The notes beneath the pieces are model-generated. The model ran no database searches and was not told where the DNA came from. It saw only the letters and a list, made by a program, of their open reading frames with translations. This document shows positions 3,636 through 63,664 of a stretch of DNA of 64,000 nt, piece by piece. The stretch's first letter is position 1. The number at the start of each line of letters is the position of its first letter. The stretch comes from Minisyncoccota bacterium (GTDB lineage Bacteria; Patescibacteriota; Minisyncoccia; Phycocordibacterales; UBA1006): positions 32,786-96,785 of the forward strand of contig JAIPIY010000002.1 of NCBI GenBank assembly GCA_021734445.1. Reading direction: 5' to 3'. Made by a program: the position numbers and the translations under genes.

Positions 3636-4853
3636 TTAGTTGTGATAATATTTTTCTATAAAGTTTTTCTTATATTCAAAAAAAGTATCATTATGAATTG
3701 CCTCTCTGGCACCATCCACCAACTGTACCGTAAAATGTACATTATGTATTGATGCCAATGTTCCCGCCAGCATTTCTTTTGCATGAAATAAATGCGCAAC
3801 GTACGCACGAGTAAAATGTGTACAAGTATAGCAGGTGCACCCTGGTTCCAATGGCTGCATATCAGTTCGATATTGTGCGTTGGTAATACTGTAGGTTCCG
3901 CTGTGGGTATAGATTGTTCCATTTCGGGCGATGCGTGTTGGTGCAACACAATCAAACAAATCACACCCATGTTCAATACCCAACAACACATCCCCGGGTT
4001 CACCAATACCCAACAGATGTCTTGGTTTTTCTTCTGGTAATTCTTCGTTTACCCATTTCACTGCAGTACCTAAATCTTCTTTAGTAAAAGATCCTCCAAT
4101 ACCAAAACCATCGAACATATCTCCTGATTCGGTTTGCAATGATGCCAGCGTACGTGCTGATTCACGACGCAAATCTTCGGATTGACCACCCTGTACAACA
4201 CCCAACAACATCTGCTTTTTTTCTTTATCTAATTCGTTGTGCCGAATCAAACTTTGCAACGCCCACGCATGAGTACGATCCATTGCAGTTTTTTGATATT
4301 CATAGGATGCCTGTGGGCTAGTGCACTCATCAAATGCAAAAATAATATCAGCGCCCAAATTCCATTGAATTTCCATAGAACGTTCTGGAGTAAATCTATG
4401 AGTAGACCCATCTCGATGCGAACGAAATGTAACACCCTCGTCATCAACACGCGCCAATCGTTCATTATTTTTTGTTCCCCCTTCTGGATTTTTTTTAGAT
4501 TGATTTTGTGTTTGTGTTGCGACTTTTGATACATGTTCACCAAAAGCAGCACCTAAAGAAAACACCTGGAATCCGCCTGAGTCAGTAATTGTTGGACCAT
4601 GCCAACCCATAAAAGGACCAAATCCACCTGCATTTTTTATAATCTCATCTCCTGGTTCTAAATACAAATGATAGGTGTTTGCCAACACCACCTGTGCACC
4701 CATTGTTTTTACCATATCGGGAGTCAGTGCTTTTACGGTTGCCTGTGTTCCCACAACAGCAAAAGCAGGAGTTTGAATATCTCCATGAGGTGTATGTATA
4801 ACACCCGCACGCCCTAACGATCCTGGTATTTTTTTATGTAATGAAAAACTCAT
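3636..4853 (-). CDS. tgt: Queuine tRNA-ribosyltransferase (Tgt) with a ~25-aa low-complexity insertion
   Basis: GGFQVFSL, FDEC, LLGIG, and zinc ligands CTCYTCTHFTRAYVAHL. An inserted segment QTQNQSKKNPEGGTKNNERLARVDD lies between the conserved blocks. Confidence 0.9.
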   Translation of the reverse strand: MSFSLHKKIPGSLGRAGVIHTPHGDIQTPAFAVVGTQATVKALTPDMVKTMGAQVVLANTYHLYLEPGDEIIKNAGGFGPFMGWHGPTITDSGGFQVFSLGAAFGEHVSKVATQTQNQSKKNPEGGTKNNERLARVDDEGVTFRSHRDGSTHRFTPERSMEIQWNLGADIIFAFDECTSPQASYEYQKTAMDRTHAWALQSLIRHNELDKEKKQMLLGVVQGGQSEDLRRESARTLASLQTESGDMFDGFGIGGSFTKEDLGTAVKWVNEELPEEKPRHLLGIGEPGDVLLGIEHGCDLFDCVAPTRIARNGTIYTHSGTYSITNAQYRTDMQPLEPGCTCYTCTHFTRAYVAHLFHAKEMLAGTLASIHNVHFTVQLVDGAREAIHNDTFFEYKKNFIEKYYHN

Positions 4854-4860
4854 AGGATAA

Positions 4861-5721
4861 TTATTCTTCCAAAATTATTGGTTCGTCGTTGGGCATAATT
4901 TCTTCGTACGTTAGATCCAGCAATCTTACAAAACGAATTTTTTCTGGATGTACGGGTAATCGCACATATGTTTTTTGAAATGGATCACGAGAATCAAAAG
5001 AAACTTTTTCAATCACACCCGCAACAAAAGGAGCGTTCGCGTACGAAACAACGTCGCCCTGTTCTACAGCAACATGTCGTGGAATTTCTAATTGCATTTG
5101 ATATCCACCCTTACCGCGCATCATCAATGCAATGGGTTCTTGTTCTTCATCAGAAGAGATAAACATTACTGGTGTATCCATGTCTGCATGAGATATTAAT
5201 GAGATAACTGAATAACGAGAATCAACCAAAGAAACTTTCCCAATTAATATTCCCGATTCAGAAACTGCTCCCTGCCCTACTATTACGTTATCTAATGAAC
5301 CTTTGTCTATAATCATAGTATCACGTGAGTACGATGATTTCGTATGCACCACACGCGCAATCAAAGAAGAAAGATTTGCATTATCCAAACCAACTAAATT
5401 TAATAATTCGTTATATTCTGATTCAATCACTGTTGCTTTGTCTAATAGTATTTGTTCTTCGGTAACACGTTTTTCCAATTGTATTAATCGATGCATCAAT
5501 TCTTTTTTTGGTAACAATGACAATGATTGAACACTGTTTTCATCATCTCCCTGAATCGAAGACCAGACCGGTGAAACCATACGTATCATCAATGATTGAA
5601 ACCAAATGGCAGTAGGCCGAAATCCTACCAAGAAAAGAACCAATCCCACCACAAAGACAGTCAACGGCCAAATGTTTTTTATTCGAGATGTTGTAGAATT
5701 ATGATCGCGCATGATCTTCAT
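4861..5721 (-). CDS. mreC: Rod shape-determining protein MreC
   Basis: N-terminal TM, a coiled-coil and a C-terminal beta domain. It lies immediately downstream of mreB and overlaps it by 23 nt. No mreD follows. Confidence 0.75.
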   Translation of the reverse strand: MKIMRDHNSTTSRIKNIWPLTVFVVGLVLFLVGFRPTAIWFQSLMIRMVSPVWSSIQGDDENSVQSLSLLPKKELMHRLIQLEKRVTEEQILLDKATVIESEYNELLNLVGLDNANLSSLIARVVHTKSSYSRDTMIIDKGSLDNVIVGQGAVSESGILIGKVSLVDSRYSVISLISHADMDTPVMFISSDEEQEPIALMMRGKGGYQMQLEIPRHVAVEQGDVVSYANAPFVAGVIEKVSFDSRDPFQKTYVRLPVHPEKIRFVRLLDLTYEEIMPNDEPIILEE

Positions 5722-6745
5722 GATACGCTAATACGTCACGATATTCATCCAGATTTTCTAAAACGATTCCAGCTCCACGTGCAACAGCCGACAAAGGATC
5801 ATCTGCAACGTGTACCGGTATTTTCAAAATACCTTGTAACAGAGTATCCAACCCACGGAACAATGCACCACCACCTGTCAGATACATACCTCGTTGCATA
5901 ATATCAGAAAGAATTTCAGGAGGAGTTGTTTCGATGACTTCTTTTGATCCTTCGATTAATTCATGTAATGAACTAGACATCGCTTCGCGAATATCGGTAT
6001 CAGTTAACAAAACTTCTCGGGGTAATCCAGTAATTAAATCGCGCCCTTTTACCGTTGCTTCCATAGGTTCCCCATCTTCTGAAACAGATCCAATAGCAAT
6101 TTTTACTTGTTCAGCAGTTTTTTCTCCAATGAGAATTTTAAATTCATCACGCAAATACGAAACAATATCTTGATTAAAACGATCACCTGCAATTTTCATA
6201 TTTTTTGATTGTACAATTCCACCCAATGCAATAACAGCAATATCACTGGTTCCACCACCAATATCAACCACCATAGACCCAACAGGTTCCTGAACGGGTA
6301 ACCGAATACCAATTGCTGCTGCCATAGGTTCTTCGATAATATACACTTCACGGGCACCTGCGTTTCGTGTCGCGTCATACACCGCACGACGTTCTACATT
6401 GGTAATACCAGATGGAACACCAACCACCACACGTGGACGGAAAAATTTCTTTGACATTTTTTCTGTCTTTCCAATCAAATACGACAACATTTCTTCGGTA
6501 ATTTCAAAATCAGAAATAACGCCATCCACCAAAGGTCGAATTGCCTTGATATGCCCAGGAGTACGTCCCAACATTTTTTTTGCTTCTACCCCTACCGCAA
6601 CAATTCTGTTTGTTTTTGTGTTCATTGCCACAATAGATGGTTCATTGATAATAATTCCGTGACCACGCAAATACACCAAAGTGTTTGCCGTACCCAAATC
6701 TATTCCTATATCATTTGAAAACTTTTTGTATAATTTTTCTAACAT
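5699..6745 (-). CDS. mreB: Actin-like rod-shape protein MreB
   Basis: DLGTANTLVY, the phosphate-2 and adenosine motifs DIGGGTSDIAVI, and LTGGGALFRGL. Full length, 348 aa. Confidence 0.95.
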   Translation of the reverse strand: MLEKLYKKFSNDIGIDLGTANTLVYLRGHGIIINEPSIVAMNTKTNRIVAVGVEAKKMLGRTPGHIKAIRPLVDGVISDFEITEEMLSYLIGKTEKMSKKFFRPRVVVGVPSGITNVERRAVYDATRNAGAREVYIIEEPMAAAIGIRLPVQEPVGSMVVDIGGGTSDIAVIALGGIVQSKNMKIAGDRFNQDIVSYLRDEFKILIGEKTAEQVKIAIGSVSEDGEPMEATVKGRDLITGLPREVLLTDTDIREAMSSSLHELIEGSKEVIETTPPEILSDIMQRGMYLTGGGALFRGLDTLLQGILKIPVHVADDPLSAVARGAGIVLENLDEYRDVLAYHEDHARS

Positions 6746-14147: not shown

Positions 14148-15440
14148 CTATATACAAGTTCCAATTGTCCAGCCTATGGTTCCATCAGAATTACCACGAT
14201 GACATGTTTGCGTAACTGTAGGTTGCCCAAGAGTCCATGTTCCATTTTGATATGTGGCAATAGAAACTCTTTTTGTCTGAGATACTGAATCATCTAGTTG
14301 TGCAAAAATTGCTGTAACTATATATTGACCATCATTATTTTGATCTACAGTAACAGATACACTTCCACATTCTTGTACACAACCTTCTTCAGGGAAAAGA
14401 TTACCCCATGTCTGTTTTGCTAAAATTTCTGCTTGTGCTTGTGTTAATGATTGACTTATTATGGTCGTTTCACTTTCTGATCCACTTGCATTTATAGTAA
14501 ATGAATTGTCTGAACTATCAATAAAATTAGGAGGTGCTCCTTCAGGACCTGAAGTTTGATTTAGCTCATGATCAATTATTACCCAATAATTTCCTGGAAC
14601 AAGCACGGGTGATAAGGTAAATGTCTCAGAGCCATCATTCACTGTACCATTTGGAATAAAGGACTGAACTACAGGCTGATTTGTGCTATTATTATGTGCG
14701 AGAATATAAACTACTGAGGAAAAATTACAACTCTCCCATTCTACAGCAATCTCTTCTCCCGCAACATATTCCTCTCCACCATTTGGTGACAATACCTTGA
14801 TCCAAGGTGCAGTATTTGCATTACATATTTCAGTATTTTCACCAGTAAGTGTTGTATCTGTTGTAGATACGTTAATTCGAGTATCCGCACCAGATCTTAC
14901 CGCAACGACCTTTTGTTCAAGCTCTTTGGTTGACTGCAGGCGCGCACCTACAGAGGTACGCATACTTTCTTGTTGTTCCACTGCACGATCAATGGCTTGT
15001 TTTACTTCTTCATCTTCAGCGTGCAACTGAACATCTTGTAATATTGAAACTCGATTTTCAGAAATATCTGAAAATCGAGATAATACTTGCTGTCGTATTG
15101 CCAAATCAGGAATACGCGAAACCGCAACAGTTGCCCGTGCTAAATGTTCTTCAGATTCACGCAAAAAAGATTCTGCTTCTGCGATATTTCCTTGCTCCAT
15201 TTCTTGTGTAGCCAACCCAAAACTACGACCTGAAAATTCTTGTAATAAGCTAGCTTTCTTTTCTGAATTAAAAGTAAAGAAAAGTTTGATTTTATCAAAA
15301 AAACCAATTGGTTTTATTTCTGCGCTTTGCACAATAGATACGTCTGCGGTACTGGTAGCCATTTGTGCCGAAACAGTATACGCTGAAACAAATACCAACC
15401 CTATACCTATAAATATACTTGCAATTATTTTGTTAGTCAT
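14148..15440 (-). CDS. Secreted protein: signal peptide, coiled-coil region, Kre9/KNH-like domain and a C-terminal Cys-containing domain
   Basis: MTNKIIASIFIGIGLVFVSAYTVSA signal. ICNANTAPWIKVLSPNGGEEYVAGEEIAVEW is paralogous to the 13417-14121 domain. Confidence 0.6.
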   Translation of the reverse strand: MTNKIIASIFIGIGLVFVSAYTVSAQMATSTADVSIVQSAEIKPIGFFDKIKLFFTFNSEKKASLLQEFSGRSFGLATQEMEQGNIAEAESFLRESEEHLARATVAVSRIPDLAIRQQVLSRFSDISENRVSILQDVQLHAEDEEVKQAIDRAVEQQESMRTSVGARLQSTKELEQKVVAVRSGADTRINVSTTDTTLTGENTEICNANTAPWIKVLSPNGGEEYVAGEEIAVEWESCNFSSVVYILAHNNSTNQPVVQSFIPNGTVNDGSETFTLSPVLVPGNYWVIIDHELNQTSGPEGAPPNFIDSSDNSFTINASGSESETTIISQSLTQAQAEILAKQTWGNLFPEEGCVQECGSVSVTVDQNNDGQYIVTAIFAQLDDSVSQTKRVSIATYQNGTWTLGQPTVTQTCHRGNSDGTIGWTIGTCI

Positions 15441-15521: not shown

Positions 15522-16280
15522 TTATATATCTGTTTTTTCTACAGTACCTTCTTCTTTATTTTCTTCTTCAGATATTTCTTCATCTTCTTTTATTTCTTGC
15601 GATGCATAATAGTTTTCAACTAATACCAATGGAAGCATTTCTTCTACATCCGCTAATGAAAATAATCCTGTATGAACAATATCATCAACCATAATCGAAG
15701 GAGAGCCAGGAATATTAAAAATGGATATTAATGTTTGCATAGCTGGTGTATGTAAATCACGATCTAGCCAATAAATACGAACTTCTGGATATCGTGCACC
15801 AATTTCATCCAATACCACCGTTTGACGTCGGCAATCACGACATGACTGTTCATGGAAATATAATACAGAAACGATTTCTTCTCCGCATCGTTCGTTGAGC
15901 TCTTGTCGCAAAAGATAATCTTTTATTTGTAAAAGATTATATTGTTGTTTAATAGCTAATAGATTTGGATTTTCAGAGCCCAAATCACTCTCCATAAACT
16001 TCACCCGCCGAGCTAGATTATTTAATTCTTCATTTAATTCACGTTCAAAGTTTTCATTTGAAACAACATGATCACAAGAAGAATTTCCTAGTAATGCATA
16101 TCGTGTTTCTATAGATAAAATATCAAGAGATATTTTATTTTGAATTTCTTGAATTTGTGAAATACGTGCATTACTAGCTTTATCAGATAAAAAGAATGCC
16201 AGAATGAACAATCCTAAGGTTACAAAAAATACAATTGCATAATGATAAAAAGAATAGTTTTTCATATATATTAGCGCCAC
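15522..16280 (-). CDS. Membrane-anchored thioredoxin-like (CxxC) protein with an acidic C-terminal tail
   Basis: N-terminal TM, a CRDC (CxxC) motif in a region of thioredoxin-fold-like spacing, and a Glu-rich tail. Overlaps the GT2 gene by 10 nt. Confidence 0.45.
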   Translation of the reverse strand: MALIYMKNYSFYHYAIVFFVTLGLFILAFFLSDKASNARISQIQEIQNKISLDILSIETRYALLGNSSCDHVVSNENFERELNEELNNLARRVKFMESDLGSENPNLLAIKQQYNLLQIKDYLLRQELNERCGEEIVSVLYFHEQSCRDCRRQTVVLDEIGARYPEVRIYWLDRDLHTPAMQTLISIFNIPGSPSIMVDDIVHTGLFSLADVEEMLPLVLVENYYASQEIKEDEEISEEENKEEGTVEKTDI

Positions 16281-17557
16281 GATGGTGTGCTGGCGCGAAG
16301 AGTATCATATACAGAACGCAGTACCCAAAATGGAACTACAAGTCCGTACAAAATAAAAAATGGAATAAAATTAACAAAAGAACCTTTTCGAATACCTGAA
16401 ACATATCTTCCCAAAAATACGGTCCCTAAAACAGATGCAAATATAACCAGAGACAAGAATGATAATGCCTGAGTATTCACGAAAAACCAATCCAACGAAA
16501 CAAATGCTTGCCATGATGAATTAAACCCAACCAATTGCAAGGTACTGAAATAATGTATCAAACCATCAAAAATTTTATACCAACTAATGAAGAACACACT
16601 AAGAATAACAAAATAGGCAAATACACTGGTTGGCACTGTGAACATACCAAATGCTCCCATTTTCGGATTGAAAATAATTTTTTTATAATCACGCGTATTT
16701 TGCAAAAACCCATATCCCCAACGTAACCGCTGTCGAAATAATGATGATACCGAAGCAGGACCTGTGGTGTATACCAAAGCATTATGACAATGATCTACTT
16801 CGTATCCCGCAATTTGTAATCGATAGGTCAATTCTAAATCTTCTAGATTATGTGCTCTTTTATAGCCACCCACAGCACGTAATGCATCTATTTTGAATAC
16901 AGAAAATGCACCAGGGACAACCAAAACACCACCCAAGAGACCTAAAACTTTTTTTGTAAATGCAAACATTTGATATTCAATACTTTGTGCTTTTTGAGCA
17001 AATGTTGCTGGGTTATGAATCAATACTGAACCTCCTACTGCTGAAACTTTTTTATTTTTTACGAACACAGATGCAATCGCTTGAATTGACTGAGAATCAA
17101 GTCTCGTATCTGCATCCAATGAACATATTAAATCAGTAGTGACGTAATCCAAAGCAAGGTTCAAAGCACTGTGTTTCCCCCCATTTTCTTTTTGCAAAAG
17201 AATAGTATTTTTTCTTTGTGCATATTTTTGTAACTCTTTCCACGTGGCATCGGTACTACCATCATCAACAGCAATAACAAATAATTTATCTTGTGGATAT
17301 GCTACGTTATCCAACGACACAAATGTTGCATCTATGGTTTTTTCCTCGTTCCAACATGGAACTACCAAAGTAACAGTAGGCAATTCTTTGGGGTCAACAG
17401 AAACGAGAGAATCTTGTTTATATTGTTTACGAGAAATAAAAAATGAATACAGAAAAAAAATCTGTGTGTACAAAGACACAAAGACAACCCCATACAAAAA
17501 AACTTGAACCCAATCTATATGCATATAATTATTAGTATTACTATACCAAAAAAACAC
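16271..17557 (-). CDS. Processive family-2 glycosyltransferase (NodC/PgaC/cellulose-synthase-like), integral membrane
   Basis: VVPCWNEEKTI...VDDGSTD (DxD region), D-box, QRLRWGYG (the Q(Q/R)xRW motif of processive beta-glycosyl polymerases), flanking TM helices. Confidence 0.85.
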   Translation of the reverse strand: MFFWYSNTNNYMHIDWVQVFLYGVVFVSLYTQIFFLYSFFISRKQYKQDSLVSVDPKELPTVTLVVPCWNEEKTIDATFVSLDNVAYPQDKLFVIAVDDGSTDATWKELQKYAQRKNTILLQKENGGKHSALNLALDYVTTDLICSLDADTRLDSQSIQAIASVFVKNKKVSAVGGSVLIHNPATFAQKAQSIEYQMFAFTKKVLGLLGGVLVVPGAFSVFKIDALRAVGGYKRAHNLEDLELTYRLQIAGYEVDHCHNALVYTTGPASVSSLFRQRLRWGYGFLQNTRDYKKIIFNPKMGAFGMFTVPTSVFAYFVILSVFFISWYKIFDGLIHYFSTLQLVGFNSSWQAFVSLDWFFVNTQALSFLSLVIFASVLGTVFLGRYVSGIRKGSFVNFIPFFILYGLVVPFWVLRSVYDTLRASTPSWR

Positions 17558-57488: not shown

Positions 57489-57516
57489 AAAAAACCGCAC
57501 ATGGTGCGGTTTTTTA
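57489..57516. terminator. Bidirectional intrinsic terminator
   Basis: AAAAAACCGCACATGGTGCGGTTTTTT. Confidence 0.75.
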
Positions 57517-57526
57517 ATTATGGCAA

Positions 57527-57832
57527 TTATGCTAAATACGATTGTTTGAAAACCAATAATTCTGCCGCAATCAATTGAGATAGATCAGGAATTGCAGAAA
57601 GAAAGAATTCTTGCATTTGCTCATCTGCGGTATCAGCATCTAAAAGTGTATTAAATTCTTCTAATTTTTCAGTAGATAAATTACCAATAATAACAGCATT
57701 GATACGATCTTCTAATTGATTCAACAGATCTGATTTAATTTGATCAATGACTTCTTTTTCCAAATCTGTTGGAAATTTCTTTTCTTCGTATAATCGCTCA
57801 ACGAATGATTCTAAATTAAGATTTTGATTCAT
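57527..57832 (-). CDS. Small acidic protein, hypothetical (101 aa)
   Basis: Helical, Glu/Asp-rich, directly downstream of the 1145-aa gene with a 7-nt gap. Confidence 0.45.
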   Translation of the reverse strand: MNQNLNLESFVERLYEEKKFPTDLEKEVIDQIKSDLLNQLEDRINAVIIGNLSTEKLEEFNTLLDADTADEQMQEFFLSAIPDLSQLIAAELLVFKQSYLA

Positions 57833-57839
57833 GATATAT

Positions 57840-60800
57840 TTATATTATTTTTGTAATAGTAATAGAACCTTTTTTAAATGCATTTTCTGCATCACTGACA
57901 CCAAAGCTATCTTTTGAAACTTCGCCTGTTTCTTTGCTTTTAACCTCAACCTTGATATCTTTGAAAATCCAACCCTTAACCCCAGTTACAGTGTATGTAT
58001 TTTTGGTATCTTCGAATTCTGTTCCTGTTTTTAACAGGTCAGCACTGGTGAAGACTTGTTCTAACGAGGAGGCTTTTGGTTTTTCTTGTACGATAATAGG
58101 AGCTACAATAGGTCCACCTATTTTTGCAGTTTCTCCAGATTTTTCTTTGATTACCTCTACGGTTTCTTCTTTTTCTTGGTTACCAATAAGAAGCGCCTCT
58201 AGTCCTGTTGCAATAATATCTAATTCGGTCTTGTTGAAAACCACAGGTGTACCATCTGGAATGTTTTTCATTTCTTGATATTTATTACGTCCATATTCAG
58301 AAGAAAAATCCCCTTCTGAAATCATAATAATACCCTCTGATGATTGAATCTTTTTATTCAACATTTCAATGTCTTTTTTCATTGCATCTGGTGATCGTTC
58401 GGGAGAACTCATAGCCTCCTTTTCTGGAACAATCACAATAGTTTCTTCTGGGGTGATTACCGTAGCGCGAGAAAGTATTCCCTCTATTTCATCTCCAATA
58501 ACCTGCATTTCGCTTTTATTAAAAGTTACAGGAATACCTTCTTGAATAAAAGATAATTCTTGATAACGTTTTTTTCCATAAGCAGATTTAAAATCATCTT
58601 CTGTAACAGTAATAATCCCTTCTGATGATTGGATCTTTTTATTAATCATTCTCAGATCATCTTGCATGCCCTGATATTCTTCCTGAGTTATTTTTATTGA
58701 CTCGTCAGTTTTTTCCTTTTCTCCTTCAACAGTCAAAATAGAAGCAATGATAGGGCCACCAGTTTTTTTGTCTGCCCCTTTTTCTTTTTTGTCTTTTGCA
58801 ACCAAAGTTTCTAACGGTGTTCGTGGAACGACAGGAATAAAATATGGAGGCTCTGTATCTAACGGCAATTCTAGATTATGTACAGGATAATCATCATATG
58901 TTGGGATTATTGATTCAATATTGTTATTGTTTTCACCAACCAATGTTGCCAATGGTTTTACGTGTTCGACGCCATCTTGTTCACCAAATGATTGTACGAC
59001 TTCGGCAAAACGTCCTTTGAAAACCGCCTGACCATCTTCGGTAGCAAAAAATAATTTCCCTATTTCACTATCCGGATCAATTACTGCATTCCCGTTTGTA
59101 TCTATAGGAACCTCAAACACATGGTGTTGTGTATCCTGAGATAAAGAGAAGATCATTTTTAATGTTCCCTCTTTCATTTTTTCTTGTGCATCTACTGAAA
59201 AACCATCATGAAAAGATCCATCTTCTGTCATGCGCGCCATATTAAGAACATAGTTACCATCGGCATCGATACCTGTACCACCACCCCAATCAAGACGTAA
59301 TTCGTTTTTATCAAAAATTAATGTATCATTATCATACCAGGCGTCACGGGTAATATGTTGAGTCCCTTCATGAGTTTCCACATATTCTGCTGCTGTCTGA
59401 GTTACCTGTTTGGTGCCCTCTATCAACGTATGTGTAGTATTTGCAACAACGCCAGTTTCTCCTAATCGAGCCAAAGATCCAGCGTCTAAATTACCATCCG
59501 CATCAAAAGATAGTTTGATATTATCTGAAATAACAACATCACCCTTGAGAACATCAAAAGTTCCATCTAGATTTTTAATAATACTGGTGCCCTCTGGAGT
59601 ATTAAAAGTAACTCCATCTACAGTTGTTGTTACAGGATTATCCAGACCCATAGTAGAGGGGTCATTCATTATCCATCCACGCAAATGCTCTAGTGGTGTT
59701 TGAATTCTATTTTCATCTCCACCATTTTTCAAGAAACCTTCGATAATCCCCTGGGTATCATCTTTAAAGAATGCCACTGCTTCTTGTACGACGCCGCCAA
59801 TCACAAGACCACTAAGAGCGGTTGCCCCCACTTTCATTGCGACACGCTTTGCTTTGTATCTACTAAATGCTTTATCTTTTGCAGAAATACCCTGTTCACC
59901 ACCCATTAAAGAATCTTCTACAGTTTTTGCTTGTTTTGCAAGATAACTATCAAAAGTTTCACCTTCTGGAATACCCCCTTTTAATCCGGCTTCTATTTTC
60001 TTTCGTAATTCTACTTTTGCTTTTGCTGTTAAAATGGTTAAATCAGTTCTTTCTTTTTCTACACTACCAATATCAGTATATGAGATGAGATCGATTCTCT
60101 TTTTTGCATTCAAAGAATTTCGTGCTTCGATAGAAGCCAATTGTGCAAATATGGCACTCATTTCTTCTTCTTTGATATTTTTTATTGTTTCATTTCCTTC
60201 GGCATCTTTTTCAAAAACAAGTCCGCGCAATTTTGTTGCCAAGACAGATGATTTTTCCATCTGGTATTGATGTTCGTTTATTTGTTCTCGTCGTTTTGAA
60301 TCTTTTTCAAATGTTCCACCTTCGGCCATTTCTAATCCATGTTGAGCGCGTTCTAATGCAACGCGTTGGCTTTCATTCATACCAGCAAACGCACTGGACA
60401 CCGCAACAGCAGCACCAAAAGTACCCCATGCAGCAGCCTGAGATCCTAGTACCTTTTTCCCCATACCAACACTAAGAGAATATGCAATTCCAACCCCGGT
60501 AGATAATACAGCAGGACTGACAAACCGTCCGACTTTTGATTTTTTCATCCAATCAACACCACGGTCAACCATATTAAAATGTGCCTCTGTTTTTAGACTA
60601 CTTTTTGCTTTTCCTAAAATAATATTTGTTTCCAAATCTAATTCTTTTATTGATGCACCATGTTCCACTGCCAATCGGGCATTTTCTGCAATTTCCAAAA
60701 GATTATCTGCATACATGTTGGGACCTTTTGTCGTATCATCATTTTCTAATGTATTTAAAACACGATTTTTTTCGTTTATAAAAATTTCTTTTGATATCAG

Positions 60801-61277
60801 ACCTTGTGCATATTTTTGTACAATATCTTGAATATTTGTTTTTGCAGTGATAGTTTTTGCATCTTTTGCATCGAGAACCTTTTTCTCTTCTCCTTCGCTT
60901 AACGTGCCTTCATATTCAGAAACAAATCGTTCTGTAATAGCACCCATAGCAGCAACATGATCTGGATTTGATTTTTCCGATCTACGTGTATAAATGTTTC
61001 CTGTATTTTTTATTTCTTCACGAACTTTGTTTATTTCTCGTTGACGATAGTATTCATCAAAAAAAGTATGCTTCCAAAGCTTTTTAATAAACCCAGCTCC
61101 AGATTTTGATTCTGTCATGTATGCATCCGCAGCTTTCTTTGCTTCTGCTTCTGCAATTTCTTCTATGTTTACAACTGAAATACCTTTTTTAATTTTTTCC
61201 AATGCTTTATTTTTAGCATCTTCAGAAATTTCTTCTTCAGATTTAGGAACAGTAGGTGCGTTTTCACTCATATGCAT
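57840..61277 (-). CDS. Large (1145 aa) membrane-associated protein of unknown function with an internal duplicated ~95-aa module
   Basis: N-terminal charged coiled-coil region, two hydrophobic segments (~aa 260-300 and ~aa 480-500), a long Gly/Asp/Thr-rich beta-like region, and a tandem duplicate (...MINKKIQSSEGIITVTEDDFKSAYGKKRYQEL... / ...MLNKKIQSSEGIIMISEGDFSSEYGRNKYQEM...). Confidence 0.7.
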   Translation of the reverse strand: MHMSENAPTVPKSEEEISEDAKNKALEKIKKGISVVNIEEIAEAEAKKAADAYMTESKSGAGFIKKLWKHTFFDEYYRQREINKVREEIKNTGNIYTRRSEKSNPDHVAAMGAITERFVSEYEGTLSEGEEKKVLDAKDAKTITAKTNIQDIVQKYAQGLISKEIFINEKNRVLNTLENDDTTKGPNMYADNLLEIAENARLAVEHGASIKELDLETNIILGKAKSSLKTEAHFNMVDRGVDWMKKSKVGRFVSPAVLSTGVGIAYSLSVGMGKKVLGSQAAAWGTFGAAVAVSSAFAGMNESQRVALERAQHGLEMAEGGTFEKDSKRREQINEHQYQMEKSSVLATKLRGLVFEKDAEGNETIKNIKEEEMSAIFAQLASIEARNSLNAKKRIDLISYTDIGSVEKERTDLTILTAKAKVELRKKIEAGLKGGIPEGETFDSYLAKQAKTVEDSLMGGEQGISAKDKAFSRYKAKRVAMKVGATALSGLVIGGVVQEAVAFFKDDTQGIIEGFLKNGGDENRIQTPLEHLRGWIMNDPSTMGLDNPVTTTVDGVTFNTPEGTSIIKNLDGTFDVLKGDVVISDNIKLSFDADGNLDAGSLARLGETGVVANTTHTLIEGTKQVTQTAAEYVETHEGTQHITRDAWYDNDTLIFDKNELRLDWGGGTGIDADGNYVLNMARMTEDGSFHDGFSVDAQEKMKEGTLKMIFSLSQDTQHHVFEVPIDTNGNAVIDPDSEIGKLFFATEDGQAVFKGRFAEVVQSFGEQDGVEHVKPLATLVGENNNNIESIIPTYDDYPVHNLELPLDTEPPYFIPVVPRTPLETLVAKDKKEKGADKKTGGPIIASILTVEGEKEKTDESIKITQEEYQGMQDDLRMINKKIQSSEGIITVTEDDFKSAYGKKRYQELSFIQEGIPVTFNKSEMQVIGDEIEGILSRATVITPEETIVIVPEKEAMSSPERSPDAMKKDIEMLNKKIQSSEGIIMISEGDFSSEYGRNKYQEMKNIPDGTPVVFNKTELDIIATGLEALLIGNQEKEETVEVIKEKSGETAKIGGPIVAPIIVQEKPKASSLEQVFTSADLLKTGTEFEDTKNTYTVTGVKGWIFKDIKVEVKSKETGEVSKDSFGVSDAENAFKKGSITITKII

Positions 61278-61378
61278 TTAATTATACTAAAAAGATTCTA
61301 CAATTGATAATATGTTTTTATTATACACTATATATTATACTATGTCAATATACACATTTACCTCCTTGAACCCCTTAA

Positions 61379-63664
61379 TTATTTCGCCACAGCTACCGCT
61401 TCATCAAATTTTACTGACAATAATTGTGATACCCCATCATTACTCATGGTTACTCCATATAAAATATTGGCACGAGACATAGTTTCTCGGTTATGCGTTA
61501 CCACAACCAATTGAGACACTGTGGACAATTTTTCCAACATATCACCATACCGACGACTATTTGCTTCGTCCAACGCTGCGTCTGTTTCATCTAATACCAA
61601 AAATGGTGGTGGGTTTACCTGAGATAATGCAAACAATGCAGCAATAGAAACCAATGATCGTTCCCCACCCGATAACATATCCAATGATTTGATATTTTTT
61701 CTTGGCAGGGTAACCTTTAAAATAACACCAATTTCTTTTTCCGCCTCTTCTTCGTCGACAACATCAATCTCATCTCCGTCTTCTGTTTTCGTTGTTTTTC
61801 TCTTAGTAATATCTGCCAAAACCAAAGACCCCGTACCCCCACCAAACATAACAGAAACCAATTCTCCAAAATGATCATTGATTTTCTTTACCCCTGCAGT
61901 AAAATCATGTTCTATTCTTTGTACCAAATTTTTAATAAGATCTTCTAATGAAACAATGGTTCCCCAAATATCTCCTAATTCTTTTTCCAAAAATTGATCT
62001 CGTTCAATCGTTTCATTATATTCTTTTATAATATCATCACCAGAACCACCACCCGCATCTTCGATACGGATTTTAATTCTTTCTAATTCATGACGCATTT
62101 TTGCCAGACTATCTTCATTATCGTCTACACCAACCAAAGATTCATCTGAAACAACATCGGCTGGATGATACCCAACCAATACCCGAGATTCTTCTTCGTC
62201 ATCAACTAGTCGTTGATAAAATCGATCATATGCATCTACATGGAATCGCAATGTTTCTTCTTTGCTTTTTAGTGTGTGCGCCTGAGTCGCTAGCTCATAA
62301 AATACATGTTCTTTTTTGCGACCCTCTTCATGAAATTGAGTAATTTGATTTCGTGTTGATTGTTGATTGGTATCCAGATTTTGTATTTGTATTTCAAGAT
62401 TTTTTATTTTTTCTTCAATATCTTGTTTTTCTTGTTGCAACGCAGTTACATCATGCATGACACGGGGTGGAATTTCTTGGTTTACTGTATTACCCCCTTG
62501 TTGAATTTTTTCTTTGAACAATAGAATATCTTTTCGCAATGATTCGATTCTCGACAGCATTTCACCTGTAGTAATATCCGGAGAAAACGAACATAATGAC
62601 AATATATGGTCGCACCATGTCAGCGTTTCTTCTTGTTGTAACATTACATCCTGTGATGTTTTTTTTGCAGTAGGTGCAGGTATCGATCGTGCAACGTCCA
62701 GCAATGCTTCAACACGCCCCAATGCACGCCCCAGTGTATCTCGTTCTGCAGTATAGGTACGGCGCAAATCATCATAGGTACGTAATTCTTGTTCTAATGC
62801 ACGCAAAGGAGATTCATCAACCGATGTCTTTGCTCGTGCCATGGATTCTTCTATAGTTTTTCGCTCTACTACAATACGCTCATATTCTTGTCGTGTTTGT
62901 TCTGCGGATTGTGTATACCATGCACGTGCACGCAATGCATAGATACCAAATTGTTTTTTATATTCTTGTCGTAATAATGCGGTTTGTTCTACTTTTTCTA
63001 CTTGTTTTTTTAAAAAACGAATATGCGGAGCCAATTCGCGACGGAGACCTTCTATTTCCTGCATATGGGCTTTTGTTTTTTCTAATTTACGTTCTGCATC
63101 TTTGATTTTCATCCGGTGAATACGTAAACCCAAAGCTTCTTCGATCATCATACGTCTGTCACGTGGAGATGCATGTAAAATACGGTCTGCTTCGCCCTGT
63201 GAAATAATATGATGACCTGATGCACCTACATGCACCCGAGAAACTAAATCTTGAATATCTTTTAATCTCACCTGAGAATCATTGATACTGTATACATTCG
63301 TACCATCTGAAAAAACTTCTCGTTTTAAAATAATTTCATCAAAATCCAAAGAAATATCTTGTTCTCCTACATCACCTGACAATTGGAAAATACGATCGTG
63401 ATTATCAAAAGTAATAGCAACCGACGCACGATTCATTTTTGAAACAGTCCGAGATCCACCAAAAATCATATCTGACCCTGATGATCCACGCATAGATTTT
63501 AATGATTGCTCCCCTAATACAAACCGCATCCCTTCTACAACATTTGATTTACCAGAACCGTTAGGTCCAACAATAGCAGTTACCGGAACAGAAAAATCCA
63601 ATGCCGTAGTTTTTGCAAAAGATTTAAAGCCAGAAAGTGAAAGTGTTTTAAGACGATGTATCAT
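61379..63664 (-). CDS. smc: SMC-family chromosome-partition ATPase, compact (761 aa) with no obvious hinge domain
   Basis: N-terminal Walker A GPNGSGKSN; long coiled-coils; C-terminal signature LSGGERSLVSIAALFAL and Walker B FLVLDETDAALD. Immediately downstream of rnc, the conserved rnc-smc linkage. Confidence 0.8.
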   Translation of the reverse strand: MIHRLKTLSLSGFKSFAKTTALDFSVPVTAIVGPNGSGKSNVVEGMRFVLGEQSLKSMRGSSGSDMIFGGSRTVSKMNRASVAITFDNHDRIFQLSGDVGEQDISLDFDEIILKREVFSDGTNVYSINDSQVRLKDIQDLVSRVHVGASGHHIISQGEADRILHASPRDRRMMIEEALGLRIHRMKIKDAERKLEKTKAHMQEIEGLRRELAPHIRFLKKQVEKVEQTALLRQEYKKQFGIYALRARAWYTQSAEQTRQEYERIVVERKTIEESMARAKTSVDESPLRALEQELRTYDDLRRTYTAERDTLGRALGRVEALLDVARSIPAPTAKKTSQDVMLQQEETLTWCDHILSLCSFSPDITTGEMLSRIESLRKDILLFKEKIQQGGNTVNQEIPPRVMHDVTALQQEKQDIEEKIKNLEIQIQNLDTNQQSTRNQITQFHEEGRKKEHVFYELATQAHTLKSKEETLRFHVDAYDRFYQRLVDDEEESRVLVGYHPADVVSDESLVGVDDNEDSLAKMRHELERIKIRIEDAGGGSGDDIIKEYNETIERDQFLEKELGDIWGTIVSLEDLIKNLVQRIEHDFTAGVKKINDHFGELVSVMFGGGTGSLVLADITKRKTTKTEDGDEIDVVDEEEAEKEIGVILKVTLPRKNIKSLDMLSGGERSLVSIAALFALSQVNPPPFLVLDETDAALDEANSRRYGDMLEKLSTVSQLVVVTHNRETMSRANILYGVTMSNDGVSQLLSVKFDEAVAVAK

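Follow-up and report, generated by a model that had tools for sequence, protein, structure and literature searches.

We analysed a stretch of 64,000 nucleotides (nt) of a Minisyncoccota bacterium (GenBank assembly GCA_021734445.1, contig JAIPIY010000002.1), hereafter the window, and all coordinates below count from its first letter. Two genes on its minus strand are the subject of this work: an uninterrupted open reading frame (ORF) of 1145 codons, called at 57840..61277 (-), and an ORF of 101 codons located 7 nt downstream of it at 57527..57832 (-). They are preceded on the same strand by the end of rnc (RNase III) and by smc (761 amino acids, aa), and followed by a convergent RNase R gene. 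Using homologue searches and ratios of nonsynonymous to synonymous substitution rates (dN/dS), we assigned the 1145-aa protein to an undescribed family of Parcubacteria/Paceibacteria with a conserved core spanning aa ~12-830. Pfam searches, a survey of loci and dN/dS identified the 101-aa acidic protein as a DUF5663 protein and as its partner. From the comparison of these loci, the two genes are functionally paired and form a conserved cassette confined to ultra-small bacteria of the Parcubacteria/Paceibacteria type (Patescibacteria).

In DNA of 37% GC, chance alone would not be expected to leave anything near 1145 codons open, and the protein recurs in other assemblies. An identical sequence is deposited at NCBI from a metagenome-assembled genome (MAG) of Candidatus Pacebacteria (P0001; it starts at the second ATG), and intact orthologues with 90% and 83% identity come from independent assemblies, which bears out the preliminary description of this DNA (made from the sequence alone) in its claim that the ORF is unbroken and real. 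A word-index search retrieved 105 clusters at 90% identity, whose named sources were all Parcubacteria/Paceibacteria, Kaiserbacteria, Moranbacteria or “Patescibacteria group” MAGs. When 1.84 billion representatives were searched exhaustively with a profile, 1,376 clusters at 50% identity passed an E-value threshold of 1e-3, and 967 of them were found at E <= 1e-30. We then computed dN/dS against the 83% orthologue (locus L010), obtaining 0.153 for the large gene overall, ~0.10 in each of three core regions and 0.35 in the C-terminal tail, together with 0.110 for the small gene and 0.091 for smc as a comparison. Both genes are thus real and under constraint, and the core is conserved like a housekeeping gene.

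Family members are 1,000-1,800 aa long, and in nearly every relative the similarity to the window protein spans aa ~12-830 and then ends. Across 58 sequences, with identities down to 24%, 20 core residues are invariant, including W68, F118, N192, A197, R330, R386, D396-L397, E409, F471, G494, E499, N658-E659, S688, G729, E759 and G781, and the window protein matches the hidden Markov model (HMM) of the core from position 5 to position 838 of 839. The core carries the motifs WKHTFFDEYYRQ, YADNL.EIA, GKAKSSLKTEAHFN, NESQR..ER.QH..EMAEGG, KIDLISYS, WYDNDT, NEL.L.WGG, GSFH, SVDAQE and FAEVV. An AlphaFold2 model built from the 58-sequence alignment has a mean predicted local distance difference test score (pLDDT) of 80.4. 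It predicts a helical region at aa 14-505, with long helices at 255-272, 280-318 and 464-504, followed by a beta-rich domain with strands at aa 549-803 (pLDDT 85.7 when this domain is modelled alone), a disordered linker, two small modules, a second linker and a barrel at aa 1078-1143. The protein as a whole has a net charge of -48, and ~30% of its residues are charged.

Combining this model with composition, hydropathy and alignment, we delimited the following parts, all on the minus strand. The N-terminal domain (aa 1-250, 60528..61277; composition, alignment and AlphaFold2) is mostly helical and highly charged, lacks a signal peptide and contains the invariant residues W68, F118, N192, A197, G222 and A224. 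It is followed by a hydrophobic helical hairpin, H1-H2 (aa 252-300, 60378..60524; hydropathy and AlphaFold2), which is rich in Gly, Ala and Ser, has a short Lys-Lys loop and is a candidate membrane anchor. A helical middle region (aa 301-476, 59850..60377; alignment and AlphaFold2), which holds the motifs NESQR..ER.QH..EMAEGG and KIDLISYS, leads to a third hydrophobic helix, H3 (aa 477-504, 59766..59849; hydropathy, alignment and AlphaFold2), part of a single long helix predicted at 464-504, with conserved G490, G494, Q498 and E499. The three hydrophobic stretches (aa ~252-272, 276-300 and 477-504) reach 19-residue Kyte-Doolittle maxima of 1.46, 1.27 and 1.76, respectively; they are weak, yet free of charge over 16-25 residues, and their positions are kept across the family. 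The hydrophobic segments that the preliminary description had noticed are therefore a family-wide feature, and membrane association is plausible.

The conserved beta-rich domain (aa 505-830, 58788..59765; alignment and AlphaFold2) bears the motifs from WYDNDT to FAEVV and is modestly enriched in Gly, Thr, Asp and Glu, in keeping with the beta-like, Gly/Asp/Thr-rich centre reported before. Several members lack ~70-80 residues of this domain, corresponding to aa ~540-615 of the window protein and to positions ~550-620 of the core HMM (P0059, P0063-P0065, P0086, P0090 and P0091, as well as the large proteins of loci L012 and L013), which suggests that its first small sheet is a dispensable insertion. 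After the core, the window protein carries two copies of a ~75-aa alpha/beta module, at aa 865-940 (58458..58685) and aa 962-1036 (58170..58394), both delimited by self-alignment, AlphaFold2 and HMM. Its C-terminus is a small beta-barrel (aa 1078-1143, 57849..58046; AlphaFold2 and Foldseek) with a conserved ...IKITK end.

The two modules correspond to the tandem duplication of ~95 aa noted from the sequence alone. The string KKIQSSEGII occurs at aa 880 and aa 975, giving a period of 95 aa, and the copies are identical at 33 of 69 positions (E 1e-22); at the DNA level, 58272-58382 and 58557-58667 are 72% identical over 111 nt. The conserved repeat unit proper is ~75 aa, the remainder of the period being linker, and the predicted fold of each copy (aa 861-941 and 963-1034) is an alpha/beta arrangement of the order beta-alpha-beta-alpha-beta-alpha(-beta). 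Sixteen members have two copies. On average, modules are 45% identical within one protein, 46% identical at equal positions across proteins and 41% identical at different positions, and because identity within a protein is no higher than that between equal positions of different proteins, we consider the duplication to be old rather than the product of recent slippage. In 26 relatives a module comes behind the core, and in five it stands at the very N-terminus (P0007, P0008, P0025, P0026 and P0046, which also have the C-terminal glycosyltransferase-like domain described below). A search for the module outside the family matched a single further protein, probably itself a fragmentary family member; as the word-index search used is insensitive to short queries, this is a weak negative, and the proposal to look for the module in other proteins was thus answered in part.

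The statement that the large protein has no recognisable family held against all the resources that we consulted. Scans of Pfam, NCBIfam, PADLOC and PHROGs returned nothing credible for it (nothing under E 0.04 in PHROGs), PADLOC-DB gave 0 families as well as no toxin or immunity matches for either protein, and sub-domain scans of the N-terminal domain, the module and the C-terminal barrel against Pfam gave no match. PDB sequence searches were empty with both the single sequence and the family profile. Searching the full model against the PDB with Foldseek gave no match at E <= 1e-3; the one recurring local match, of ~57 residues to SH3/KOW barrels like domain I of EF-P (probability ~0.9, E 0.25), probably corresponds to the C-terminal barrel, which on this model-based evidence is probably SH3/KOW-like. 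For the beta-rich domain the fold search found no structural relative and only generic beta-sandwich sub-matches. Among specific functions, neither an SRP54 nor any other GTPase matched the large protein in Pfam or NCBIfam at E <= 1, the conserved core columns contain no Walker A (P-loop) pattern, toxin delivery domains showed no sequence or fold match, and known adhesin or cell-wall anchoring domains (LPXTG, S-layer homology, Ig-like adhesin repeats and others) were not found in it. No match to the pair was obtained by tblastn in 50,697 phage records or 72,556 plasmids, nor any relative by scanning IMG/VR viral contigs; by these comparisons the pair is chromosomal, not mobile. Literature searches returned no description of DUF5663 or of the giant-protein family, whose database entries read “hypothetical protein” save for a few automatic, domain-derived names on fused relatives. 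The giant-protein family is therefore undescribed, without a family model, literature, or a sequence or fold relative: an uncharacterised family, not a demonstrated new mechanism.

The acidic partner claimed for the large protein was confirmed in every locus surveyed. The 101-aa protein has a net charge of -13 and matches DUF5663 (PF18908) with 29.6 bits against a gathering cut-off of 23.7, its residues 17-96 aligning to positions 3-81 of the 84 in the profile. Its homologues form 62 clusters, all of them PF18908 members of 90-112 aa with net charges of -6 to -14, and their named sources are Parcubacteria/Patescibacteria MAGs. The protein contains an amphipathic helix with a hydropathy maximum of 1.55, and a DUF5663 profile search against PDB sequences returned nothing. 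We collected ten loci starting from the large protein (the window, L001/2, L003/4, L005, L006, L007, L008, L009, L010 and L011) and three more (L012, L013 and L014) starting from the most divergent DUF5663 proteins; the ORFs downstream of the latter (1388, 1421 and 1635 aa) match the core HMM at E <= 1e-233. In all 13 distinct loci, at identities down to 27%, a DUF5663 gene lies directly beside a family member. This fixed pairing is, as far as we found, undescribed.

Gene order within and around the pair is less constant. The small gene lies downstream, as first described, in the window and in L010, the locus of its 83% relative, but it lies upstream of the large gene in all 11 relatives outside this clade, so that the pair order of the window is inverted and the 7-nt downstream position is no rule of the family. 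The preliminary description had also placed the pair in the slot where ftsY usually follows smc. The genes rnc and smc do precede the pair in the window and in L010, but only there; the other 11 loci have unrelated neighbours (SecDF, FtsH/RecG, a major facilitator superfamily transporter, H+-PPase, radical-SAM genes and others). Because the wider neighbourhood is not conserved, we regard this slot as a lineage-specific accident of gene order.

Some of the surveyed loci hold further genes of interest. In L008 (1750-5379), a 1085-aa protein that looks unrelated is preceded by another DUF5663 gene, which is divergent and encodes 114 aa, and a 1239-aa protein follows the family member in L001 (12807-16526). 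Both large proteins are laid out like the family: a charged N-terminus of helices is followed by a hydrophobic hairpin rich in Gly, Ala and Ser, then by a coiled region and by one more hydrophobic helix. The 1239-aa protein has an ER..R.GEGG motif, to be compared with ER.QH..EMAEGG of the family. An alignment of the family profile to these two proteins with hhalign was not significant (probability <1%), and a wider superfamily including them is possible but unproven. In L012, genes of the toxin-antitoxin type (AbiEii and HepT/nucleotidyltransferase, 3928-5828) immediately precede the DUF5663 gene; as none of the other loci showed them, their position here is probably a coincidence.

To the C-terminal side of the core, most relatives carry an enzyme-like domain. 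Among 215 members with a complete core, 130 (60%) have a ~300-aa domain directly after it that resembles glycosyltransferases of the GT-A fold, with an invariant D-A-D (DxD-type) motif and a later ED motif. Its Pfam matches are weak and all fall in the GT-A clan (Glycos_transf_2, 2.4e-5; Glyco_tranf_2_3, 3.7e-5; further Glyco_trans_2_3, GT7C and GT21), most of them under the gathering thresholds. Judging from these matches and motifs, the domain looks like an unmodelled glycosyltransferase family; its conserved motifs are CIPVAGHQEG.NI, SNDADNKG, SSGANFA, ED..G and SRRA, and examples are P0170 (aa ~895-1225) and P0013 (aa ~885-1215). Other members are fused to Pkinase, GT9, DnaJ, Peptidase_C2 (calpain-like) or DUF362 domains, with kinase fusions in 6 of 28 long members. 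A tail made of one or two 75-aa modules is found in 38 of the 215 complete members (18%), among them the window protein, in which the barrel follows the modules. The HMM of the relatives' post-core domain found no GT-A-like domain in the window protein, which also has no glycosyltransferase match in Pfam, and no stand-alone copy of this domain is encoded within the window.

In one subclade a third gene follows the pair (L003, 12398-13858; L012, 10496-12303; L013, 10604-12324). Its products are 40-52% identical to one another and show GDxxDRG and GNHD motifs of the metallophosphatase type, with a weak WipA_Phos match (E 1.5e-3), and a stand-alone Pkinase gene is found next door in L003. Taken together with the kinase fusions, the metallophosphatase-like third gene and the kinase gene of L003 suggest a link to control by Ser/Thr phosphorylation.

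The fusions bear on how the large protein might be placed relative to the membrane. It has no signal peptide by hydropathy, as aa 1-250 are highly charged and no hydrophobic stretch begins before aa 252. Mean charges of the flanks are +2.7 before H1, +2.5 in the H1-H2 loop, +1.2 after H2, +3.1 before H3 and -1.6 after H3, and are thus net positive in four of five cases, including the loop. Following the core, an uncharged hydrophobic 19-mer occurs in only 3 of the 215 complete members, and two of these are Ala-rich linkers. The relative P0092 has the order core, GT-A-like domain, RKIIRKLRR-GVLAGVGVLALWASTPGV and YkuD domain; from its sequence, RKIIRKLRR-GVLAGVGVLALWASTPGV reads as a textbook signal-anchor between a cytoplasmic enzyme and a YkuD domain of the extracytoplasmic type. 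An additional hydrophobic segment in GT9-fused relatives was considered as a fourth transmembrane helix, which would have placed the beta-rich domain outside, and was rejected, being the beta1/GD motif of GT9 (VVLVLDDPMGDG). This segment, which precedes the GT9 domains, reads VVLVLDDPMGDGILTLPII and supplies the opening strand and the GD motif of their Rossmann fold; as it belongs to that fold, the argument for an outside beta-rich domain is reversed.

The cytoplasm is where nucleotide-sugar transferases, ATP-dependent kinases and J-domains operate. Because the fused enzymes need cytoplasmic co-substrates and no crossing follows the core, we infer that both termini and the beta-rich domain are cytoplasmic. 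The N- and C-termini are also most simply placed in one compartment, because the module is found N-terminal in five relatives and C-terminal in 26. The hydrophobic helices may then form a monotopic or hairpin anchor in the inner leaflet, which fits the positive charge of four of the five flanks, or else be buried in the fold.

We tentatively interpret the pair as a membrane-proximal cytoplasmic two-protein platform of Paceibacteria, made of the giant core and DUF5663 and usually equipped with a glycosyltransferase-like enzyme (probability of about 0.45). Nearly all of the mass of the large protein would lie in the cytoplasm, with the hydrophobic helices holding it against the inner side of the membrane through a monotopic or hairpin anchor and not through three passes with the N-terminus in and the C-terminus out. 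The DUF5663 protein, to judge by its adjacency, may be a stoichiometric subunit or a dedicated chaperone of the core. Together, core and DUF5663 protein would form a platform close to the membrane that in most members carries its own enzyme: the divergent GT-A-like glycosyltransferase in 60%, and otherwise GT9, a Ser/Thr kinase, a J-domain or a protease. The process served, as hinted at by the fused domains only, could be glycosylation or otherwise related to the envelope, possibly under Ser/Thr phosphorylation control. In the window variant, the two old modules and the SH3-like barrel might act as adaptor domains that recruit partners in trans. Several results weigh against this platform. Taken alone, the positive-inside rule fits a three-helix protein with N-in/C-out orientation, the flank after H3 being net negative (-1.6). 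The only structural echoes of the beta-rich domain are Ig/FnIII-like sandwiches, which are common in extracellular proteins. The GT-A assignment stands on sub-threshold Pfam matches and motifs, a profile search of this domain against PDB sequences was negative, and the window protein lacks the domain.

The preliminary description had suggested, by inference, a giant surface protein as a candidate for host attachment. Spelled out, this would be a three-pass N-in/C-out membrane protein displaying the beta-rich domain, the modules and the barrel on the cell surface. Three conserved uncharged hydrophobic helices speak for this, as do the strongly positive flank before H3 followed by a negative one, the weak Ig/FnIII-like sandwich similarity of the beta-rich domain, and a C-terminal tail that evolves faster than the core (dN/dS 0.35 vs ~0.10). 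Such an orientation would however export the GT-A-like domain, which follows the beta-rich domain without a crossing in 60% of members, along with the kinase, GT9, DnaJ and calpain-like domains of others, and it disagrees with the signal-anchor of P0092, placed between the GT-A-like and YkuD domains. The module also occurs N-terminally and without a signal peptide, the H1-H2 loop is positively charged, and the core is conserved like a housekeeping gene. We thus consider surface display unlikely: the protein has no signal peptide, cytoplasmic-type fusions follow the core, and only 3 of 215 members have a later hydrophobic stretch. The evidence from fusions applies equally to a fully soluble cytoplasmic giant, in which the hydrophobic helices would be packing helices buried in the fold that never enter the membrane. 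Hydropathy maxima of 1.27-1.76 are marginal and no proof of insertion, since the soluble DUF5663 protein reaches 1.55, and AlphaFold2 gives these helices good confidence within long helices. Charge-free stretches of 16-25 residues in a protein with ~30% charged residues, at positions kept family-wide, nevertheless speak against a soluble protein, and most of the helix flanks are rich in Lys and Arg, as is typical of membrane-inserted segments; a soluble protein therefore appears slightly less probable again than surface display.

Episymbiosis is considered widespread in this lineage, and the cassette could instead deliver exported effectors, much as large glucosylating or multi-effector toxins do. 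The helices and the beta-rich domain would then be a translocation or pore-forming device, the GT-A, kinase, protease and J-domains effectors acting in the host, DUF5663 an acidic chaperone or immunity protein, and the window protein an enzyme-less, adaptor-type member. Were this so, the family would be a Patescibacteria-wide host-interaction device whose enzymes are delivered into the host cell of the episymbiont. Variable, enzyme-rich C-termini behind a conserved N-terminal core, hydrophobic helices inside a helical region and a small acidic protein gene adjoining in 13 of 13 loci would all agree with it. On the other hand, the core is widely conserved under strong purifying selection, a single GT-A-like domain is present in 60% of members in place of a polymorphic toxin repertoire, neither a signal peptide nor a secretion-system gene among the called neighbours was found, PADLOC, toxin and immunity matches are absent, and the window protein has no enzyme domain, which together make effector delivery improbable. 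A tape-measure-like protein of a prophage or mobile remnant, accompanied by a small acidic assembly chaperone, is superficially similar in that it is long, has Gly-rich hydrophobic helices and has an acidic neighbour of ~100 aa; we hold it to be effectively refuted, as there is no PHROGs, phage, plasmid or IMG/VR match, the neighbours are housekeeping genes that differ between genomes while the pair alone is conserved, and a 326-aa beta-rich domain and enzyme fusions are foreign to tape-measure proteins. Finally, the position after rnc and smc recalls the rnc-smc-ftsY operon of Bacillus subtilis and would be occupied by a highly divergent FtsY or another secretion or division component. The preliminary description had itself named this outcome as one that would overturn its account. 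Position is all that speaks for it: neither an SRP54-type GTPase nor any other Pfam/NCBIfam profile matched, no P-loop appears in the conserved columns, no PDB sequence or fold relative was found and the smc adjacency is confined to close relatives, so that this least probable of the explanations is refuted at the sensitivity of profile and fold searches.

The pair can be compared with several known families and systems. Pfam DUF5663 (PF18908), whose gathering threshold the 101-aa protein exceeds with a match along almost all of the model, is itself a family of no known function or structure. The post-core domain of the relatives, with its ~300 aa and its D-A-D and ED motifs, is akin to GT-A (GT2-like) glycosyltransferases, whereas the window protein has two 75-aa modules and a small barrel in that place. 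In layout, the giant protein is analogous to bacterial dynamin-like proteins and mitofusins, which combine a large soluble N-terminal region, an internal hydrophobic hairpin and helical or coiled segments, and its termini, like theirs, would both be cytoplasmic; it differs from them in lacking a GTPase or P-loop and any sequence or fold similarity, and its beta-rich domain has no counterpart there. An acidic protein of ~100 aa beside a very large one is also seen with type III secretion chaperones, phage tail assembly chaperones and LXG-associated helical proteins. The analogy to a dedicated chaperone extends to a pairing that is kept while the neighbourhood varies and to the second DUF5663 paralogue that fronts another giant in L008, but DUF5663 has no sequence relation to those chaperones and no secretion-system or phage genes lie nearby.

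Few bacteria are as abundant, or as poorly understood, as the Parcubacteria/Paceibacteria, and a role has yet to be assigned to most of the genes specific to their lineage. The family defined here is very large, comprising at least 1,376 clusters at 50% identity; it shares a ~830-aa core and is under a constraint about equal to that on smc. The present analysis justifies a new family model, provides a functional context for DUF5663 and brings out a GT-A-like domain that had been overlooked. It also corrects the tempting default by which a giant membrane protein of the Candidate Phyla Radiation is taken for an adhesin. As a two-protein target, the pair comes with predictions, namely that the two proteins would form a complex, that this would be located at the cytoplasmic face and that it would be linked to glycosylation and phosphorylation.

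Putative regulatory elements flank the pair. In the gap of 101 nt between smc and the large gene, two sigma-70-like promoter matches were found at 61281..61348 (-) as consensus matches only: a distal one, TTGACA-17-TATAAT, which agrees with the consensus at 12 of 12 positions (61348..61320, -), and a proximal one, TTATCA-18-TATAAT (61310..61281, -). The large gene would thus have promoter-like sites of its own after smc. The proximal -10 box (TATAAT) ends 4 nt ahead of the first ATG (61277), and a second in-frame ATG is located at 61271, where the NCBI gene model begins; the proximal promoter could thus give rise to a leaderless, or almost leaderless, message. Between the convergent 101-aa and RNase R genes we read directly from the sequence a hairpin not assigned to a strand, AAAAA-ACCGCAC-CAT-GTGCGGT-TTTTT (57489..57515), with an A-run on one flank and a T-run on the other. 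A terminator scan of the region did not list it; from its sequence and position, it is likely a shared bidirectional intrinsic terminator.

The remaining genes of the window are of the housekeeping type (UvrB, Pif1, DnaG, RpoB/C, sigma-70, MreB/C, TGT, ATP synthase and RNase R). The SMC protein encoded upstream of the pair (61379-63664, -) has just 761 aa vs ~1,180 positions in SMC profiles. It scores 470 bits against TIGR02168, under the cut-off of 567 bits, and is matched by SMC_N across both ends, which implies that its coiled-coil arm is much shortened; the SMC of the 83% relative is of equal length. Elsewhere in the window, flanked by housekeeping genes, an ORF of 430 aa (14148-15440, -) is uncharacterised, having no Pfam match at E <= 1e-5, and a clear GT2 glycosyltransferase gene lies close to it at 16271-17557.

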